A stretch of DNA of 63,142 nucleotides, filler included, from Candidatus Zapsychrus exili (lineage in GTDB: Bacteria > Omnitrophota > Gorgyraeia > Zapsychrales > Zapsychraceae), in the NCBI GenBank assembly GCA_030765585.1. It is 11 parts of 11 records of this genome, joined end to end, with 100 filler letters (N's around TTAATTAATTAA, not from the genome) between each part and the next. Parts side by side here need not be neighbours in the genome. Positions count along the whole stretch, not along the records: positions 18,430 to 21,438 come from JAVCCJ010000081.1; 10 more parts are not named here. One strand, 5' to 3'. Position 1 is the stretch's first letter. Every line of letters starts with the position of its first letter. Shown here in pieces: positions 4,986 to 21,438 of the stretch. Below the pieces are notes generated by a model, which saw nothing but the letters and a program-made list of their open reading frames with translations, made no database searches and had not been told where the DNA came from. Position numbers and translations under genes: made by a program.

Positions 4986-5350
4986 CATCAAAAAAAAGAG
5001 TAGATACTCCAGAAACAATCAAAATAACACCTAGGACTTTAAAAAAACTAAAATTTAATAAAGACGGACTTATTCCAACTATCGTGCAAGACTACAAAAC
5101 AAACGAAGTCTTAATGCTTGCATATATGAATATAGACTCTTTAAAAAATACTTTAAAGATCAAAAAAACTTGTTTTTGGTCTCGTTCAAGACAAGAATAC
5201 TGGGTAAAAGGAATGACATCAGGTCACATTCAATACGTTAAGTCAGTTAGCTATGATTGCGACTGTGATACGCTTTTGGTCAAAGTAAGACAAATTGGAT
5301 CTGCATGTCACACAATGAAAAGAAGCTGTTTTTATAGAAAAATAAAATAA
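4982..5350 (+). CDS. hisI: Phosphoribosyl-AMP cyclohydrolase
   Basis: WSRSR..W.KG.TSG, DCDCD, ACHT...SCF. Confidence 0.96.
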
Positions 5351-5355
5351 GACAA

Positions 5356-5386
5356 AGGGGTCGTACCCTAGGGGTACGCGACCCCT
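5356..5386. terminator. GC-rich intergenic hairpin (terminator- or REP-like)
   Basis: AGGGGTCGTACCC-TAG-GGGTACG(CG)ACCCCT between hisI and trpE. No clear U-tract on the + strand. Confidence 0.45.
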
Positions 5387-5402
5387 ACACATATAATAAA
5401 TT

Positions 5403-6905
5403 ATGCTTAAACCTAAAGAACAAGAATTTTTGAAACTAGCAAAAAAAGGGAATCTTATTCCGGTATACAGAGAAATACTACTGGATTTAGAAACGCCAGT
5501 CTCTGCCTACTTAAAAATAGCAAATAAATCAAAACATTCTTTTCTTCTAGAATCCATCGAAGGAGAGGAGAAATTTGCAAGATTTTCCTTCCTTTCTAGA
5601 GATCCTGAACTTATACTTGAAACAAAAAATAACTCTGCTAAGATTACACGTTTTGTAAAAGGCAAACCTGTTCATAAAAAGAGTTCGGTCAAAGATACTC
5701 CGCTATCTTTCATACGGCAGATAATGAGCAAATATAAGTTTGTAAACGTAGCTGGTCTGCCAAGATTCTGCGGTGGAATGGTGGGATACATTGGTTATGA
5801 CACTGTCAGGTTCTTTGAAAAATTGCCTAAAAAAACAAAAGATGACCTCAAATTACCAGATAGTCTTTTAGTTCTATCAAAAGACTTGATAATTTTTGAT
5901 CATTTAAATCATAAAATAAAAGCTGTTTCTTGCGTTTATGTAGATTCGAAAAGTACTAAGGCTCAAAAAATAAAAGAATATAAAAAGGCATTAAGCAGAA
6001 TAGATAGTCTTATATCCGACCTAGAAAAGCCTCTTCCAGCATCAAGCAAGAAGAGATCTACTAAAAAATCTAAAAAACTTAAAATTAAATCAAACTTTAC
6101 CGAAAAAGGTTTTAAGAGAATAGTTACTGAAGCTAAAAAGCAAATTAAAGCAGGGGAGATAATACAAGTAGTTCTTTCCCAACGATTTGAAGTTGATTTA
6201 AGCACAGATGCATTTAATATTTATAGGAGACTACGGGCGCTAAACCCATCACCATATATGTATTATCTAAATCTTGATGGAATTCAAATAGTGGGCTCAT
6301 CTCCTGAACTTCTTGTTAGATGCGAAAAAGGTGTAGTCGATACAAGACCTATCGCGGGCACAAGGCCAAGAGGCAAGAATGACAAAGAAGATAAACTTCT
6401 AGCCAAAGAGCTTCTAGCTGATCCTAAAGAAAAGGCTGAGCATATAATGCTCGTAGACTTAGGAAGAAATGATCTTGGGAGAATATGTAAAAAAGGTACT
6501 GTGCATCTATCAGAGTTTATGGGAATAGAAAAATACTCTCATGTAATGCATATTATAAGTAATGTAAGAGGAAGTTTACGAAAAGATAAGGATGATTTTG
6601 ATGTTCTTGAGGCTGCATTTCCAGCTGGAACAGTTTCAGGCGCGCCAAAAATAAGAGCAATGGAAATTATAGAAGACCTTGAAAAAGTCTCTCGCGGACC
6701 ATATGCAGGATGTATCGGATACTTCAGCTTTTCTGGAAACTTAGACACATGCATTACAATACGTACCATTGTTGTTAAAAATAAAAAAGCATACATACAA
6801 GCAGGTGCTGGTATAGTTAACGATTCAAATCCAGCAAAAGAATACAAAGAAACAGTTAATAAAGCAAAAGCCCAAATTATGGCTATTGAACTAGCACATA
6901 AGTAA
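5403..6905 (+). CDS. trpE: Anthranilate synthase component I
   Basis: LNPSPYM, GSSPELL, RPIAGTRPRG, AEHIMLVDLGRND, PAGTVSGAPK. Confidence 0.95.
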   Translation: MLKPKEQEFLKLAKKGNLIPVYREILLDLETPVSAYLKIANKSKHSFLLESIEGEEKFARFSFLSRDPELILETKNNSAKITRFVKGKPVHKKSSVKDTPLSFIRQIMSKYKFVNVAGLPRFCGGMVGYIGYDTVRFFEKLPKKTKDDLKLPDSLLVLSKDLIIFDHLNHKIKAVSCVYVDSKSTKAQKIKEYKKALSRIDSLISDLEKPLPASSKKRSTKKSKKLKIKSNFTEKGFKRIVTEAKKQIKAGEIIQVVLSQRFEVDLSTDAFNIYRRLRALNPSPYMYYLNLDGIQIVGSSPELLVRCEKGVVDTRPIAGTRPRGKNDKEDKLLAKELLADPKEKAEHIMLVDLGRNDLGRICKKGTVHLSEFMGIEKYSHVMHIISNVRGSLRKDKDDFDVLEAAFPAGTVSGAPKIRAMEIIEDLEKVSRGPYAGCIGYFSFSGNLDTCITIRTIVVKNKKAYIQAGAGIVNDSNPAKEYKETVNKAKAQIMAIELAHK

Positions 6906-15237: not shown

Positions 15238-15366
15238 AAAGGCACTAACTTAAAAGGCGCTAACTTAAAAGGCGCTAACTTAAGGTGGGCTAACTTAGAA
15301 GGGGCTGTTTTTTATGAAGGATGGATTATAACCAAACAGGAGATGAAAAATGAAACTAAAACTTAA
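15238..15366 (+). CDS. Pentapeptide-repeat protein, C-terminal fragment
   Basis: KGTNLKGANLKGANLRWANLEGA, encoded by 15-bp tandem repeats. Confidence 0.8.
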   Translation, partial: KGTNLKGANLKGANLRWANLEGAVFYEGWIITKQEMKNETKT

Positions 15367-15571
15367 AAAAGGAGAAAGGTATAATTTTCAAGATTTAGCG
15401 ATCGTTGAAGTTATATGTCTTTCTGATGAAACATATGACCTATATGATTTCGAAATTATTAAAATAATTGATCCATTAATTATTGTGATTTTTATTTTTC
15501 TTGAATGGTATAGTGAGGGTGATATTATTAATAAAGCGCATATAGGTAATCTCAAAAGAATTTCAGAATGA
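15350..15571 (+). CDS. Phage hypothetical protein
   Basis: ORF with upstream GGAG; no motif recognised. Confidence 0.55.
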   Translation: MKLKLKKGERYNFQDLAIVEVICLSDETYDLYDFEIIKIIDPLIIVIFIFLEWYSEGDIINKAHIGNLKRISE

Positions 15572-15616
15572 TAAGGAGTAACATGAACAATTTTAACAAA
15601 AATACGGAGTTAACTA

Positions 15617-16519
15617 ATGAGTAATATACCGGCTTTTACAAAAATATATAATATCGGCCATAAAGAGGTTGAAAACATATTTGACGGTCCAGTTGAAGTG
15701 ACAGAGAAAATAGATGGCAGTCAATTTTGTTTTGGCGTTATTGATGGTAAATTGTATATACGATCAAAGGGCAGAGAAATTGATGAAGAAAATCAAGATT
15801 CGATGTTTAGTAGGGCGTGTGATCATGTTAGAAATTTGTATGAAAATAAAAAACTGCCAGAAGGATATGTATTTTTCTGTGAACGTTTAAATAGGCCTAG
15901 GCATGTTCGTTTAAAATATGACCGTGTTCCAAAAAATAACTTAATTTTGTTCGGCACACAAATAAATAATGGGTATTGTGACAATAAGCTGCGATTTGCT
16001 GAACATTTAGAATTGATATATTATGCTGACCGCTTAGATATCGAGCTTATTCCGTTAATTTATAAAGGTGATAATATTACAATCGCTAAATTAGACGAAC
16101 TTATCGATAGAAAAAGCATTCTCGGAGACGTTGATATAGAAGGACTTGTTATCAAAAAATATGATGGCGCTAACTCTCCGATCTCTGCAAAATATGTATC
16201 AGAGTCATTCAGGGAACGTAAAATAATAAAACTACCAATAGCAGAAACAAGAAAAGAGGCGATTGATGAGTTTATTAAAACATTTAGATCAGAGGCTCGG
16301 TGGGAAAAGGCTGTACAACATCTCAGAGATGACAGCAGGCTTGAAAACTCACAAAAAGATATCGGAAAGCTGGCAAAGGAAATTAATATTGATCTTTTGG
16401 AGGAAGAGGAGTCTACTATTAAAGAATTCTTCTATAAGATGTACAAGAAGGATTTTACAAAATACGCGCTCCTCGGCTTTGCTGATTGGTATTTGAATAG
16501 GTTAAGTTATGAAAACTAA
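15617..16519 (+). CDS. RNA ligase (Rnl2-like nucleotidyltransferase)
   Basis: Motif I TEKIDGSQF, motif IV EGLVIK, motif V AKYVS. Confidence 0.82.
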   Translation: MSNIPAFTKIYNIGHKEVENIFDGPVEVTEKIDGSQFCFGVIDGKLYIRSKGREIDEENQDSMFSRACDHVRNLYENKKLPEGYVFFCERLNRPRHVRLKYDRVPKNNLILFGTQINNGYCDNKLRFAEHLELIYYADRLDIELIPLIYKGDNITIAKLDELIDRKSILGDVDIEGLVIKKYDGANSPISAKYVSESFRERKIIKLPIAETRKEAIDEFIKTFRSEARWEKAVQHLRDDSRLENSQKDIGKLAKEINIDLLEEEESTIKEFFYKMYKKDFTKYALLGFADWYLNRLSYEN

Positions 16520-16844
16520 AGATGAAACGATTGACATCAGAATGCAAGACATCATAGATTTATCAGAATCCATAATGAAGGAAGCATCCCGGATTAACGA
16601 CATTACGAATGAAATATATTCTCATCATAGAATTTCTAATTTAATACTAACAGCGGATAGCATACGGGCAATTGCACAAAATGTGTCCTCTGAATATTGC
16701 GCATGGCGACATAATGGTTTTTATTTTGAAACGCAATGTCAAAAGACTTTTTCATTTGATTCTCCAAAACAATTATATGACTGTCATATTGAATATTGTC
16801 CTTTCTGCGGTAAAAAGATTATTATAAAAGAGGTTAAATCATGA
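16509..16844 (+). CDS. Phage hypothetical protein with a C-terminal Zn ribbon
   Basis: TQC...YCPFCGKKI. Confidence 0.65.
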   Translation: MKTKDETIDIRMQDIIDLSESIMKEASRINDITNEIYSHHRISNLILTADSIRAIAQNVSSEYCAWRHNGFYFETQCQKTFSFDSPKQLYDCHIEYCPFCGKKIIIKEVKS

Positions 16845-16996
16845 TTATTGATGAAAAACAACAGTATGATCCAACAAACAAGGATCATGTCGAATATTTA
16901 AAGAGGTGCTTTGCAGAAAGTGATAAGATATTTCAGAGAAGACAAGAGATGAAGAAAAAGTTGAAGAAAGAGAGAAACAAGTTAAAGCTTAAATAA
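16841..16996 (+). CDS. Small basic hypothetical protein (51 aa)
   Basis: GAGG RBS and ATGA overlap; MIIDEKQQYDPTNKDHVEYLKRCF... Confidence 0.55.
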   Translation: MIIDEKQQYDPTNKDHVEYLKRCFAESDKIFQRRQEMKKKLKKERNKLKLK

Positions 16997-16997
16997 A

Positions 16998-17276
16998 TCA
17001 CTTAGGCCTCGCCATCATCCTCTCTATTATTTTCGCCAATGAGCTCTTTATCTCTCCGATATCCTCTTTCAACTCCTTGTCCCTTTCACGCATTAAATCA
17101 AATTTTAGTTCTATATTCTCGTTGTGGGATTTTAAACTATCACTGATACGTTTTTTCTCGCCGCGAACATGCTGATAAAACTGATATAACTGAAAAAGAA
17201 TAGCTGAGGCAAATATCAAATCAAATCCCGCCAAATGGGTTGCAATATGTTTCTGTATAAAACTAAGCATAAACAT
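16998..17276 (-). CDS. Phage membrane protein (one TM plus coiled coil), lysis-module associated
   Basis: Hydrophobic N-terminus, heptad-like C-terminus, downstream of the holin. Confidence 0.55.
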   Translation of the reverse strand: MFMLSFIQKHIATHLAGFDLIFASAILFQLYQFYQHVRGEKKRISDSLKSHNENIELKFDLMRERDKELKEDIGEIKSSLAKIIERMMARPK

Positions 17277-17379
17277 CCGTGTATTATACCCTTATTAAAG
17301 GGAAAGCCGTTATCCTTTAATAACAGTCTTCCTTATTAAACTTTATTTAAATAGTAATTCCCTATTAAAAGAAAATCAA

Positions 17380-17775
17380 TTAAACTGTAAATCTGTTCCC
17401 AAACCAGAATGAAATAGTGCCTGCACATAATTCTTTAAAAGATTGATCCATGTGAAAGCCAAAAAGAACACAGCATGCAACCAATAAAATTGAGATAACA
17501 ACATAAATAGGTCTGATTGAAGCACGCAGATCGAGTATCCATTGACTAACTTTTTTCGGATTTGGCATATCTCTGTTATAATATTTAGTCTGTGCATCGA
17601 CTAAAGCCGCTTGTCCTTTTGTATAGTCAGCAATTACTTCTGGTTTCGTTATAGCAAGTGTATTTAAAGTTGCAGAAGCCGTATCATTCTTGCTTACAAA
17701 TATCTTCTTTATAAGATCAAAAACAGGGGGCATAATAAGGCCGCCTAATGTTACAATTGCAGTCGGATCAAACAT
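17380..17775 (-). CDS. Holin (3TM/GTA-holin-like)
   Basis: W...LRASIRP followed by TM helices and ISFWFGNR; adjacent to the lysozyme. Confidence 0.75.
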   Translation of the reverse strand: MFDPTAIVTLGGLIMPPVFDLIKKIFVSKNDTASATLNTLAITKPEVIADYTKGQAALVDAQTKYYNRDMPNPKKVSQWILDLRASIRPIYVVISILLVACCVLFGFHMDQSFKELCAGTISFWFGNRFTV

Positions 17776-18287
17776 TATAATGACTCATCATGCGGCCCGT
17801 ATTCTTCAAAAAACTTGTTGTTTGCCACTTTTCTTATAATATTAGACATTCGTTGCGCTCTCTCTGGTGTATCATCTCTGTACCATTCAGAGTCTAGCAT
17901 TTCCTCTGCTGCTTCGGCATATTTATCGTCTTTTAAATATCCAAGTGTGTTTTTAAACTCCATTAGATCACTGAAGCCCATCTGATAAGCCATACAGATC
18001 AAAACAGCCTGGACAGTAAATGACTCATCCCTATAAAATGGCAAACGATGCTCTAATTTAATATGAAGCGTTTCAACAGAATCATCTAAAATCTGTGCTG
18101 CGTATTCTTTAGATATTTTCCCCTTTTCAATAATTGCATCTACAGCTTTCTTAGGGAGAATGCCATCTTCAAGATTTGTACCATAGCCAATAGTGAGTTT
18201 TTTAGCTGTGCATCGATAAGGGGTATCACTAAACCCCTCCTCGAATATCAATATATTTTTGGCATATTCACATGCAGTTTCGGTCAT
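17775..18287 (-). CDS. Phage lysozyme (GH24/T4-like endolysin)
   Basis: EEGF..PYRCT..LTIGYG, MAYQMG, AAEEMLDSEW...PERA. Confidence 0.9.
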   Translation of the reverse strand: MTETACEYAKNILIFEEGFSDTPYRCTAKKLTIGYGTNLEDGILPKKAVDAIIEKGKISKEYAAQILDDSVETLHIKLEHRLPFYRDESFTVQAVLICMAYQMGFSDLMEFKNTLGYLKDDKYAEAAEEMLDSEWYRDDTPERAQRMSNIIRKVANNKFFEEYGPHDESL

Positions 18288-18329
18288 TTACTTTTTTCAT
18301 TCTTGACTTCGGCTGCAATCTTTTCAACT

Positions 18330-18429: not shown

Positions 18430-18743
18430 AACTTATCTACAATATCATCAACACCCAACTCTGATGGATTTAATCTATCTACAAGACTTGCTCTAGCAGT
18501 CCATAATACAATAGGATTTGTATATCCTGCAGCTCTCATCCTTTTTGCAGTTTCAATACCACTAAATCCTGGCATTTCAATATCCATCAAAACTAAATCG
18601 GGTGTTTGTTGAACAATATAATCAAGTGCTTCTTGACCACTGGTGGCTTCACTTACACTACCGCTACCGTAAATATTTTCTATTGGCCCAGATCTTAACA
18701 TCCTATCATTTGCTTCATCATCAACTAATAATATGTTCTTCAT
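18430..18743 (-). CDS. Receiver-domain response regulator, 3'-truncated
   Basis: ILLVDDE, DLVLMDIEMP, WTA, DK. Confidence 0.88.
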
Positions 18744-18853
18744 ATCCAATAAGAATGATATTATATTTAAAAATATAACTGATAGCTAACCCTTAATTCT
18801 CTTAATAAAAGGCACTCCGTGCTTGATGCAAAAAAACTTTCTCTCTGCGTCAT

Positions 18854-18900
18854 ACTGTCGACTTCGTCGATTTTTTCTTGCAGAAAAAACGTATAACAGC
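18854..18900 (+). repeat. 47-bp inverted repeat, left arm (pairs with 19373-19419)
   Basis: ACTGTCGACTTCGTCGATTTTTTCTTGCAGAAAAAACGTATAACAGC; its exact reverse complement is at 19373-19419. Confidence 0.95.
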
Positions 18901-18984
18901 GATTCGTGATGTTATATACAATCAGAATTCGGCTAAAACAAGCGCAAATTATCTAGTGTCAGATGTTGGTTTACCATGATTCCC

Positions 18985-19194
18985 TTAAGGGCTCTCATGA
19001 GCTAAATATTCAAGTGGAGGTAATGGAATATTGCCAGTGTCACTCCTCCATGATCTTCTTTCTTCTATAATTCTTATATCCTGTTCAAATTGTTTTACTA
19101 ACTCCGCTTGATGAGCTTCACTATTTTCATAACACACATGAGAATAAAGACATCTCTGAGGACCATATTCTTTAGTTCTTGGTGGTGGAATCAT
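18985..19194 (-). CDS. Hypothetical 69-aa protein (MIPPPRTKEYGPQRC...)
   Basis: 3' part of ORF 18985-19395. ATG 19194 is preceded about 25 nt upstream by TTTTATATATT. Confidence 0.5.
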   Translation of the reverse strand: MIPPPRTKEYGPQRCLYSHVCYENSEAHQAELVKQFEQDIRIIEERRSWRSDTGNIPLPPLEYLAHESP

Positions 19195-19254
19195 TATATC
19201 CACAAATTTTATGAAATATATAAAATATTCGTCAAGGTGCCCAAAATCAATTTC

Positions 19255-19382
19255 ATTTAACATCGCAACTATGCGAAGTTGTTTATATCCGAAGGATAAT
19301 AAACAATTTGGGTGAAGTGGAGTTCGGCTACGAGCGAAGCGGAGTGGACGAATGGAACGTAACCGTATAGTTGCTGTTATAC
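19255..19382 (-). repeat. attC-like recombination site (128 bp)
   Basis: Minus strand reads GTATAAC-AGCAACTATACG...CGCATAGTTGCGAT-GTTAAAT: an AAC/GTTRRRY core, a long imperfect stem with a 2-nt bulge, and internal hairpins. Confidence 0.7.
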
Positions 19383-19419
19383 GTTTTTTCTGCAAGAAAA
19401 AATCGACGAAGTCGACAGT
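19373..19419 (-). repeat. 47-bp inverted repeat, right arm
   Basis: Exact reverse complement of 18854-18900. Confidence 0.95.
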
Positions 19420-19485
19420 TTAGAATAAGTCCGTCATCAGATAAGCGAATGCGATACATCAAACAAAATAATCAAGGGGCTGGGG

Positions 19486-20448
19486 CTACTTAATATCTAA
19501 TCTTTCTGCTCTTTGTGCTATTTTTGTATAGAATTCATCCTCTTTTCCAATTAAATTAGGATATCTACTCTGATAAAATTCAATTGTCTTTCCAATTAGA
19601 CCTTTGAGTCTTTCATAATCTAAATCACCAAAAGCTTTAAAGAAATTTCTTAAATATCTATTTAAAATTGTTTTTCTACTACTATTAGTATCTCCAGATA
19701 ACTCAAAAGCACCGTCTTTTGCTAAAAAAGCCAATCCTCGGATATGATCTGCGACAATAGGATTATTATCAATTTTTTTAAAAATAGTACTAATTGATTC
19801 TAATCCATTTATTGCTTGTACTACACGTTCTAAACCAAAACCAGCAGCAATAGTTGGAGGATTATATTCGCTAACAATTTCCCCTTTCTCAACTCTTTGG
19901 TCATATAGGACAGAAGTAAATAATTCTAATTCTCCTATATTTGATGGGAAAAATAATTCAGTACGTGGACCTCCATAAGGTTCAACTTGATTAGCAACAT
20001 ATGATTCCATATCTGTATGGGGAACAAATTTTTCTATCCCAAGAGATTCCCATATAGGTTTTACTTCATCTGGATTTACTTTTACATTATTAATGGTTCC
20101 ACCATCAAAATAATGTGCAGTAAAATTATCTAATTTAATACTTCGTAAAAATGATAATTGATCTTGAAGAATCCTTTCTCTATCCAGGGGATTGTCAGAA
20201 AAGGTTACTGCCATTTCAAAGAAAGAAAGATGAGTTTTATCTCCAACTTTTTCAATATCCCAATATCTATGACAGGGCTGTATAACAACATACGGTCCAT
20301 TACTTTTTCCTACAAAGTTTGGACCACCACTCACTGTAAAGCAGGTTGGAAATGTTTCATTAACAAGCGAATCTGAACTAATTGAATTGTATCCTCTTTC
20401 AGTCATATATTGTTGAAATTGCTTTCCAATTTCATTTATATTAATCAT
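19486..20448 (-). CDS. Stand-alone alanyl-tRNA-synthetase-like catalytic domain (divergent paralog, 320 aa)
   Basis: Class II motif 2 QPCHRYWDIEKVGDKTHLSFFEM, GPRTELF, motif 3 GFGLERV, and IVADHIR. No editing or C-Ala domain. Confidence 0.85.
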   Translation of the reverse strand: MININEIGKQFQQYMTERGYNSISSDSLVNETFPTCFTVSGGPNFVGKSNGPYVVIQPCHRYWDIEKVGDKTHLSFFEMAVTFSDNPLDRERILQDQLSFLRSIKLDNFTAHYFDGGTINNVKVNPDEVKPIWESLGIEKFVPHTDMESYVANQVEPYGGPRTELFFPSNIGELELFTSVLYDQRVEKGEIVSEYNPPTIAAGFGLERVVQAINGLESISTIFKKIDNNPIVADHIRGLAFLAKDGAFELSGDTNSSRKTILNRYLRNFFKAFGDLDYERLKGLIGKTIEFYQSRYPNLIGKEDEFYTKIAQRAERLDIK

Positions 20449-20536
20449 AGAGTAGTTAATTGCATTAGAGTATATTAGTGTTTGTAGTAGTATTTTTAAC
20501 GACAGATTTAAATATAGGGAGTGTATTAATAATTAT

Positions 20537-21277
20537 ATGGAACCTGAAGAAGCGCTAAAATCAATTGGTTTGTCAAGTAAAGAAATTAAAGTTTATCTTG
20601 CTTGTTTAAAGATAGGATCTGCAACAGTGAACCAAATATCTAAAGAAGCTGGAACTTTTAGAACATATACTTATGATATTTTGAAATCATTGGCTGAGGA
20701 AGGATTGGTTCATCATGTGATGAAAGAAAGAAAACAATTCTTTGAGTCTTCTGATCCTGAGAGAATAATTGAAATTTTAAAAGAAAGAGAAGATAAGATA
20801 AAGGATGTTCTTCCAAAATTGAAAAGTATGAGTAAATCCATAACAGAAAAACCCTCTGTTGAATTCTACGAAGGATTAGCAGGAGTAAATTTCATACATG
20901 ATTTAATTTTACGTGAAGTTCCAAAAGAAATAAGAGTTTTTGGAAATCCCGAACAGCACTTTGAAATCATGAAATTTTACCTACCTAGATTTGTAAGAAC
21001 AAGAGTAAAAAAGAAAATAATGGCGAGGGTAATAATTAAGGAATCAAAGATTGGCAGAGAATGGATGAAAGGAAAAGAAAAACTAGAATTAAGAGAAACA
21101 AGATTCTTTTCTTTACAACCAAAAGAATTTCCTGCTGTAATATATATGTGGAATAATAAAATTGCCTATTTTACAATCGAAAAGAAGATAATTGCAGTTT
21201 TAATTAAGAATGAAAATATAGCACAAGCACAAAGAGCAGTATTTGACAATTTATGGGAAGTAGCTAAGAAAGGATAA
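20537..21277 (+). CDS. TrmB-family transcriptional regulator
   Basis: LKSIGLSSKEIKVYLACLKIG...RTYTYDILKSL..GLV wHTH, VEFYEG, and a C-terminal effector domain ending FDNLW. Confidence 0.9.
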   Translation: MEPEEALKSIGLSSKEIKVYLACLKIGSATVNQISKEAGTFRTYTYDILKSLAEEGLVHHVMKERKQFFESSDPERIIEILKEREDKIKDVLPKLKSMSKSITEKPSVEFYEGLAGVNFIHDLILREVPKEIRVFGNPEQHFEIMKFYLPRFVRTRVKKKIMARVIIKESKIGREWMKGKEKLELRETRFFSLQPKEFPAVIYMWNNKIAYFTIEKKIIAVLIKNENIAQAQRAVFDNLWEVAKKG

Positions 21278-21320
21278 AGCCCCAGCCCTCTCAAAATAAA
21301 AAGGACTTATTCTAAATTGC

Positions 21321-21438
21321 GTATAACATCGCAATTAAGCGACCCGTAGGGCTCGGGCGGAGTGAAACGACCCCGAGTGTTTTTGCGAAGCAAAAATATG
21401 GGTGGAAAAACCTGCAAGGTTTTGGAACCGCTTAATCT
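21321..21438 (-). repeat. attC-like site, truncated by the contig end
   Basis: Minus strand ends CGCTTAATTGCGAT-GTTATAC, the same TTGCGATGTT end as 19255-19382. ATTAAGCG/CGCTTAAT stem with internal hairpins. Confidence 0.65.

Follow-up and report, generated by a model that had tools for sequence, protein, structure and literature searches.

Integron gene cassettes carry recombination sites (attC) whose R'' and R' cores contain AAC and GTT and at whose GTT the neighbouring DNA switches; these sites form long imperfect hairpins with an asymmetric spacer and a variable centre, the cores of one cassette are complementary to each other, and in arrays the sites stand in tandem on the same strand (PMC2727003, PMC4889954, PMC8946536). 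Cassettes with two ORFs and cassette-borne promoters have already been published (PMC8618304). In archaea, Ghaly et al. (10.1101/2022.02.06.479319) described attC clusters in metagenome-assembled genomes (MAGs), those of Nanoarchaeota and Aenigmatarchaeota among them. Most of these clusters lacked a recognised IntI, their cargo included restriction-modification and acetyltransferase genes, and IntI1 was reported to recombine 8 of 9 archaeal attC sites. An IntI-specific domain is required in that study, the available text of which mentions neither extended cassette ends nor short recombinases; its site set may include some sites of the family described below.

The locus studied here shares all of the above properties of integron cassettes, sites and arrays, and like most of the archaeal clusters it has no recognised IntI. 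It lies in a window of 63,142 nt, the whole stretch of DNA that was analysed, in which separate contigs are strung together by N linkers; the cassette is on contig C6 (18430-21438, 3,009 bp), which belongs to a 2.0-Mb genome bin (G000). An earlier note on this DNA had proposed that two attC-like sites in the same orientation bracket a divergent gene pair, and this was borne out: the sites are 2,066 bp apart and end in TTGCGAT-GTT on the minus strand. Since the neighbouring DNA switches at the GTT cores (see below), the minus strand is the top strand of the cassette, which runs from 21326 to 19261. The features are collected in the table. In our assessment the cassette is genuine and mobile and belongs to an integron-like archaeal system; it behaves like an integron cassette but departs from the classical definition in two respects, the bulged bases of the site and the insertion of IntI.

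Features of the cassette and its surroundings, in positions of the window (a dot marks features without a strand)
Feature	Position	Strand	Remarks
Hairpin-module copy and shrunken attC-like hairpin	18854..18917	+	outside the cassette; mini-site 18891-18917, 27 nt, faces the opposite way
Cassette	19261..21326	-	2,066 bp; starts with the TT that follows the right site's crossover G, stops at the crossover G of the left site (its own)
Cassette's own (left) attC-like site	19255..19382	-	model R1 46.8 bits, E 5e-8
Two-hairpin module	19384..19418	.	between R'' and the tail arm; repeated family element, second copy at 18854-18900
Patch 1, tail arm	19419..19432	.	pairs with 21303-21316
Patch 2, tail arm	19477..19487	.	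at the TAG stop of the alaS-like gene, 2-nt overlap
AlaRS paralog	19486..20448	-	320 aa; PF01411 E 9e-12; aminoacylation and tRNA-recognition domains only
Patch 3, tail arm	19506..19519	.	within the 3' end of the alaS-like gene, reads AQRA
Divergent promoter region	20449..20536	.	88 bp; conserved non-coding block in 3/3 aligned loci
TrmB-family regulator	20537..21277	+	246 aa; PF01978 E 7e-14; antisense to the top strand of the cassette
Patch 3, head arm	21226..21239	.	within the 3' end of trmB, where it encodes AQRA; pairs with 19506-19519
Patch 2, head arm	21278..21288	.	at the trmB stop; pairs with 19477-19487
Patch 1, head arm	21303..21316	.	head positions 12-25; pairs with 19419-19432
Preceding cassette's (right) attC-like site	21321..21438	-	complete in L100 (1887-2014), 51.6 bits

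The left site has the hairpin architecture of an R stem, an unpaired spacer, an L stem and a variable centre: R'' (GTATAAC) is followed by an 11-bp L stem, a hairpin-rich centre, a GAT spacer and the GTT of R'. Within the cassette the GTTATAC and GTATAAC cores are complementary over 8 contiguous bases, R'' deviating from RYYY at one position, and the complementary unit ends GTTATACG (21327-21320) and CGTATAAC (19383-19376) of the earlier note are present. Classical attC has bulged bases (PMC2727003), whereas the L stem is unbroken both in the left site and in the alignment of the family, and the extrahelical L-arm bases (G on the bottom strand) are absent; the right site has a single extra L-arm base, which is a C on the bottom strand. 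Contig C6 ends at 21438 and the right site is therefore short by 10 nt there. The right site folds with z-scores of -4.7 and -4.2, the left with -2.3 (plus strand) and -2.9 (minus strand); on its own, the left site does not form the full stem in the minimum free energy structure of the minus strand or in either centroid, the full stem being weakly populated. A CALIN has at least two same-strand attC sites within 4 kb and no IntI; with two R1-recognised sites 2,066 bp apart the locus corresponds to one, provided that its sites count as attC.

Both sites were recognised, in the proposed orientation, by a model (R1) built from 19 archaeal sites of other genomes, recombinase loci L268 and L295 being among the contributors. 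In its stem 9 of 16 pairs changed on both sides and 99% of cells were paired, in training sites that had been picked for having a stem. The site-family pattern occurs in 14 of 371 archaeal genomes of one phylum, that of the MAG G001, which carries a 9-site array on contig C9 and 5 further sites on C8; the reversed control pattern gave 0 in every genome among those listed. In locus L224 (G001:C9:41000-57822), R' and R'' of the same cassette match in 6 of 8 intervals, across different DNA. Queries with the cassette-end DNA against 215 archaeal genomes returned 6 and 2 weak matches, and Rfam 3 matches, all far under their gathering scores and none of them real. There was no match in viral contigs by protein or by two DNA patterns, none in a first single-protein search of genome contigs, and no further R1 match elsewhere in the bin. 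Some other sites of the family are unusual: one on C8 (L225 9040-9129) is symmetric, with an R'-type spacer at both ends and scores on both strands, and could accept either orientation, and in an archaeal genome half a family site adjoins an apparent tRNA gene (L185 338-410).

Evidence that the cassette moves comes from assemblies. A metagenome contig (L100) is identical to the window over 2,181 bp and diverges exactly at the left core, only TAAC being common to the two. We also compared four salt-lake runs (X1, X3, X4 and X5), all as contigs. A contig of X1 carries 1,597 identical cassette bases and then, beyond the right core, a different site, whose first bases are also found in an archaeal site of L225; the right site continues into other DNA from 21322 in both X1 and X3, and in X1 and X5 another site is followed by the 48 nt with which the cassette's left flank in the window begins. 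The natural junction thus appears to change at both cores, with a crossover at the GTT of R', with the caveat that repeated sites can produce chimeric assembly joins. Identical DNA carrying the gene pair recurs with other neighbours. Among the joins listed for the contigs of the four runs there was no circle or excision joint, and contigs cannot show absence. Two parts of the left flank (18430-18833 and 18935-19136) were covered in none of the runs, so the left flank as it stands in the window rests on one assembly and the 48-nt piece. A loose end in X1 hinted at a swapped cassette order, which we set aside as site halves and arm are common to several cassettes. We likewise rejected the reading of the complementary outer flanks of L100 as an isolated target site, since other sites begin in the same way and the flank is therefore family consensus. 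L100 also contains a NitT/TauT-type ABC transporter operon (152-1887). Ahead of the right site this operon closes with a tail module and an arm, and it may thus itself be a multi-gene cassette.

The two ends of the cassette pair well beyond the 7-bp core, as the earlier note had observed. Its 14-bp repeat (patch 1) lies where it was reported, and no match of this length arose between the end windows in 5,000 shuffles, the maximum being 11; on the bottom strand a G-T wobble (G19418, T21317) precedes it. The 11-bp repeat (patch 2) had been described as abutting both stop codons, which holds for trmB, but it overlaps the TAG stop of the alaS-like gene by 2 nt. A third patch of 14 bp, collinear with the others and located in both coding ends, had been missed. 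These three patches are the three longest inverted repeats of the cassette; the next is 10 bp long and within the range of codon-shuffled sequences, so the body does not fold and the proposed stem of the whole body shrinks to a pairing within roughly the terminal 100 nt on one side and 145 nt on the other. Most integron cassettes pair over 9-11 nt in total (PMC2727003), compared with 14-17 bases more than R here, plus the patches; a further difference is the hairpin module that stands here between R'' and the arm. This module has contig coverage in all four runs and forms a side branch of the modelled circle junction.

Such arms are not what sets this cassette apart. Among 27 intervals between consecutive same-strand sites, some of which may hide missed sites, 15 (14 of 26 without this cassette) have an arm starting at head position 12 with at least 12 matches to their own tail, as compared with 4 of 702 mismatched pairs; the other 12 have no such arm. 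The mean number of perfect patches of at least 10 nt is 1.33 for own pairs and 0.087 for mismatched ones. Head position 11 is A in 24 of the 27 intervals and is opposed by C in 14 of the 15 that bear an arm, which gives the G-T wobble on the bottom strand, and this fixed register with a conserved mismatch suggests selection. When folded, the circle junction of this cassette reaches -52.9 kcal/mol compared with -32.1 in the array, and the circle junction was the more stable form in 20 of 22 modelled intervals. A bacterial-type array of seven sites (L103), which we take to be CPR-like, has the same extension without the hairpin module, the own score exceeding the best mismatched one in 4 of 6 cases. 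We considered and dropped two back-to-back single-gene units sharing a 3' motif, the arms being both cassette-specific and general.

To the left of the cassette the module is found again, in a perfect 47-bp inverted repeat (18854-18900 / 19373-19419) that was absent from the earlier note and ends in the oppositely oriented mini-site. The mini-site has no R1 match at E<=1, and a 54-nt stretch related to this region (18854-18917) was present in run X4. Between the two opposed sites lies a 340-bp stretch (within 18854-19261), both ends of which start like a cassette head; it is either a rearrangement or an assembly join and is mostly uncovered by the four runs.

There is no recombinase on C6 or L100, and the bin assembly G000 contains no IntI, the best score being 92 bits with a cut-off of 265. 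In G001, however, a 269-aa recombinase on the opposite strand heads the 9-site array of C9. It scores 199 with the IntI model (cut-off 265) and 209.7 bits with the XerA model NF040815 of NCBIfam (cut-off 220), and solved XerA structures match it end to end. Unlike the IntI of integrons it is without about 45 residues of IntI4, whose positions 178-238 face only its residues 175-190. No IntI with the specific insertion is present in G000, which is probably not the true host bin, or in G001. The recombinase thus resembles XerA in score and structure but belongs to a separate starred clade that heads cassette arrays. A site lies within 1.5 kb at 13 of its 30 closest homologue loci; within the clade, 13 loci extend for at least 800 bp upstream, and 11 of these have an upstream site on the opposite strand, or 10 of 12 when the training locus is left out. 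By comparison, 19 distant XerA-like control loci (of 20, one having been left out for size) had sites in 2 cases, and in their main clade, the other starred one, in 0 of 15. On the tree the adjacency label was no better clustered than in shuffles (126/500), largely because 12 of 29 loci of the clade end within 200 bp upstream; motif spacings are unreliable in the recombinase-locus rows where the pattern matched an earlier site. The adjacency conflicts with the conclusion drawn for bacterial genomes by Cury et al., in the accessible text of which recombinases without the IntI domain near attC are not IntI (PMC4889954). The cargo of the 9-site array behind the short recombinase (L224) comprises GNAT, NUDIX and GmrSD-Schlafen genes, a restriction-modification gene of 1,131 aa and a shikimate-kinase-like gene, and thus resembles that of the archaeal clusters of Ghaly et al. 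in its restriction-modification and acetyltransferase genes. Inside the L103 array there is an 87-aa fragment (5242-5505) similar to the start of the XerA-type model.

From the point of view of its host, C6 is probably an archaeal contig that was misbinned, since its relatives suggest an origin in small-genome archaea. For the AlaRS paralog there is a 44% homologue labelled Nanoarchaeia, and the same gene pair is present in an archaeal MAG (locus L020 of G001), which fits the archaeal affinity that had been suspected. The full-length AlaRS of the bin itself is encoded on another contig (C122), and a tblastn search of the bin found no second TrmB homologue. By tetranucleotide composition C6 is not set apart from the bin: 12% of 389 pieces lie equally far off. 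Contig C5 of the window (15238-18329), from the same bin, is phage-like and carries an RNA ligase and a lysozyme gene.

Taken together, we consider it probable that the locus is an integron-like mobile cassette of DPANN type, with a short XerA-type recombinase, a hairpin split between the cassette ends and a regulator-enzyme cargo. The cassette would leave and re-enter DNA through site-specific recombination, with the crossover at the GTT of sites folded from single strands. The enzyme is likely to be the short tyrosine recombinase found at the head of same-family arrays in relatives, and not a classical IntI. The recombination hairpin would be longer than that of a textbook attC and divided between the two cassette ends, so that head and tail meet only in the circle, where an outer stem (the wobble, the 14 bp and further patches) would extend the R stem and the hairpin module would branch off sideways; the outer stem would make the folded bottom strand more stable and so serve its re-insertion. 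A rival reading, in which a classical IntI from elsewhere moves the locus as an ordinary CALIN cassette, the arms are a functionless by-product and the short recombinases are bystanders, has several points in its favour: archaeal CALINs and IntIs are known, IntI1 acted on archaeal attC in the study cited above, the bacterial survey rejected short recombinases as IntI and the long arm is missing in 12 of the 27 intervals. We nevertheless hold it to be unlikely, because integron geometry recurs at 11 of the 13 informative loci of one recombinase clade, the family's 11-bp L stem lacks the bulges that are read by the IntI insertion (PMC4792948, PMC2727003) and the start of the arm keeps its register and its conserved mismatch.

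Sites that are single and in both orientations, as in L225 and the mini-site here, a short and probably misbinned contig, and Logan contigs that break at the repeats could instead be taken as signs of a dispersed palindromic repeat family, REP- or MITE-like, whose different neighbours are assembly chimeras. In that case breakpoints should fall anywhere in the shared repeat, but they fall at the GTT core; moreover the match of R' and R'' across different DNA in L224, the one-orientation arrays behind a recombinase and the pairing of arms within and not between cassettes all speak against it, and we regard such a family as highly improbable. Least credible of all is the distinct autonomous cassette type of the earlier note, whose whole body would fold into one stem. 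The three collinear patches, one of them in both genes, and the status of this cassette as the sole divergent pair among the 27 intervals can be cited for it, but complementarity beyond the terminal 100-145 nt is not above chance, the arms are general and the gene pair also occurs without sites. If, as we prefer, a short recombinase acts on these sites, integron-type shuffling would be independent of the domain by which IntI is defined and detected, and a large number of the "integrase-less" clusters of DPANN and CPR genomes would turn out to be complete and active. A search of literature titles and abstract openings, outside subscription journals, found no description of long private cassette-end arms or of arrays at whose head stands a recombinase that lacks the IntI insertion.

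The cargo is a divergent pair with its own promoters. The regulator has the N-terminal helix-turn-helix of TrmB (51.9 bits, Pfam cut-off 25.6) and 54 homologues at E<=1e-20, and is far under the cut-offs of the named TrmB equivalog models. The conserved intergenic block is a candidate operator to which TrmB probably binds, and together with the gene arrangement it suggests that the cassette regulates itself, as the earlier note had supposed. As the pair is also divergent in L020 and in L110, which shows just 128 bp past trmB, these comparisons identify it as a conserved module; for several further pairs of homologues the lengths of the contigs agree. Among the 27 intervals, 6 have several ORFs and 8 a single antisense ORF.

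The second protein belongs to an undescribed family of AlaRS paralogs. It scores 56 bits with the full AlaRS model (cut-off 529), is without the editing and C-terminal domains and falls in a separate long-branched clade; at E<=1e-30 the paralog was found in 1 of the 371 genomes of the phylum of G001. Its predicted structure (pLDDT 94) has the fold of the AlaRS catalytic fragment, with best matches at TM 0.78-0.83. In alignments the motif-2 Arg and GxGLER are retained, whereas the motif-3 Asp is replaced by Ala and the Trp before the GPC motif is also replaced; in AlaRS this Asp and the pocket Trp presumably bind alanine. AcmF of ascamycin synthesis, as far as it is described in the available text (PMC12945691), likewise consists of the aminoacylation and tRNA-recognition domains only and is altered at the motif-3 Asp, there to Glu, and at the preceding Asn; unlike AcmF, the paralog retains the motif-2 Arg and GxGLER, lies in no biosynthetic cluster and has relatives fused to or beside regulators and histidine kinases. 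The paralog is probably an amino-acid or adenylate transferase or a sensor: it may well be an AcmF-like transferase or ligase, a role as a sensor is quite conceivable, and we doubt that it charges tRNA. A 36%-identical paralog is a single-gene cassette in L103, and relatives also form single-gene cassettes in L105. Two AlaRS-like stretches occur in relatives P0089, P0090, P0091 and P0098, of which two are fusions with GAF and histidine-kinase ATPase domains and one carries an N-terminal MerR-type helix-turn-helix, which suggests a sensor family derived from aminoacyl-tRNA synthetases. In bacterial loci L021, L104, L106 and L107 the paralog stands after an ABC operon of the branched-chain-amino-acid type and before large proteins without Pfam domains, in L021 and L106 also with a response regulator downstream.

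The origin of new cassettes is stated to be unknown (PMC4889954, PMC5371416, PMC4792948), and this cassette may offer a handle on it, as its module exists inside and outside cassette form, its natural junctions lie at the predicted base and its patches reach into coding sequence. In L020 no site lies within 21 kb around the divergent pair. The earlier note had counted a pair without sites, together with sites failing attC models, as evidence against its proposal; the former holds in part, through L020, and both window sites fit R1. A divergent pair with its own promoters cannot be copied from one mRNA, so either the cassette arose at the DNA level or the sites were lost from the copy in L020. 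A length of 14, that of patch 3, was reached in 2 of 5,000 codon shuffles for the last 60 nt, a range chosen post hoc, and in 14 of 300 when any position was allowed. As the C-terminal helices of the two proteins are similar, the patch could be a coincidence. AQRA or VQRA is present in 6 of the 15 AlaRS-paralog C-termini shown, and AQRA in 2 of 24 TrmB sequences compared (that of the window and a 93% relative), most having AQK; the site-free pair of L020 shares only 8 nt in this region. This distribution would fit a copying from end to end. We tentatively suggest, as one possibility, that the collinear patches are footprints of cassette making or maturation, by a fold-back with discontinuous template switching at the DNA level that overwrote coding sequence. 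The hint at cassette formation in the earlier note would then survive as end copying, though not by way of a whole-body stem. Such copying, combined with a recombinase without the IntI insertion, would make this a second integron-like lineage in which cassette genesis is testable. Patches of complementarity to the coding 3' end of their own gene are also found in two non-coding leaders of L224.
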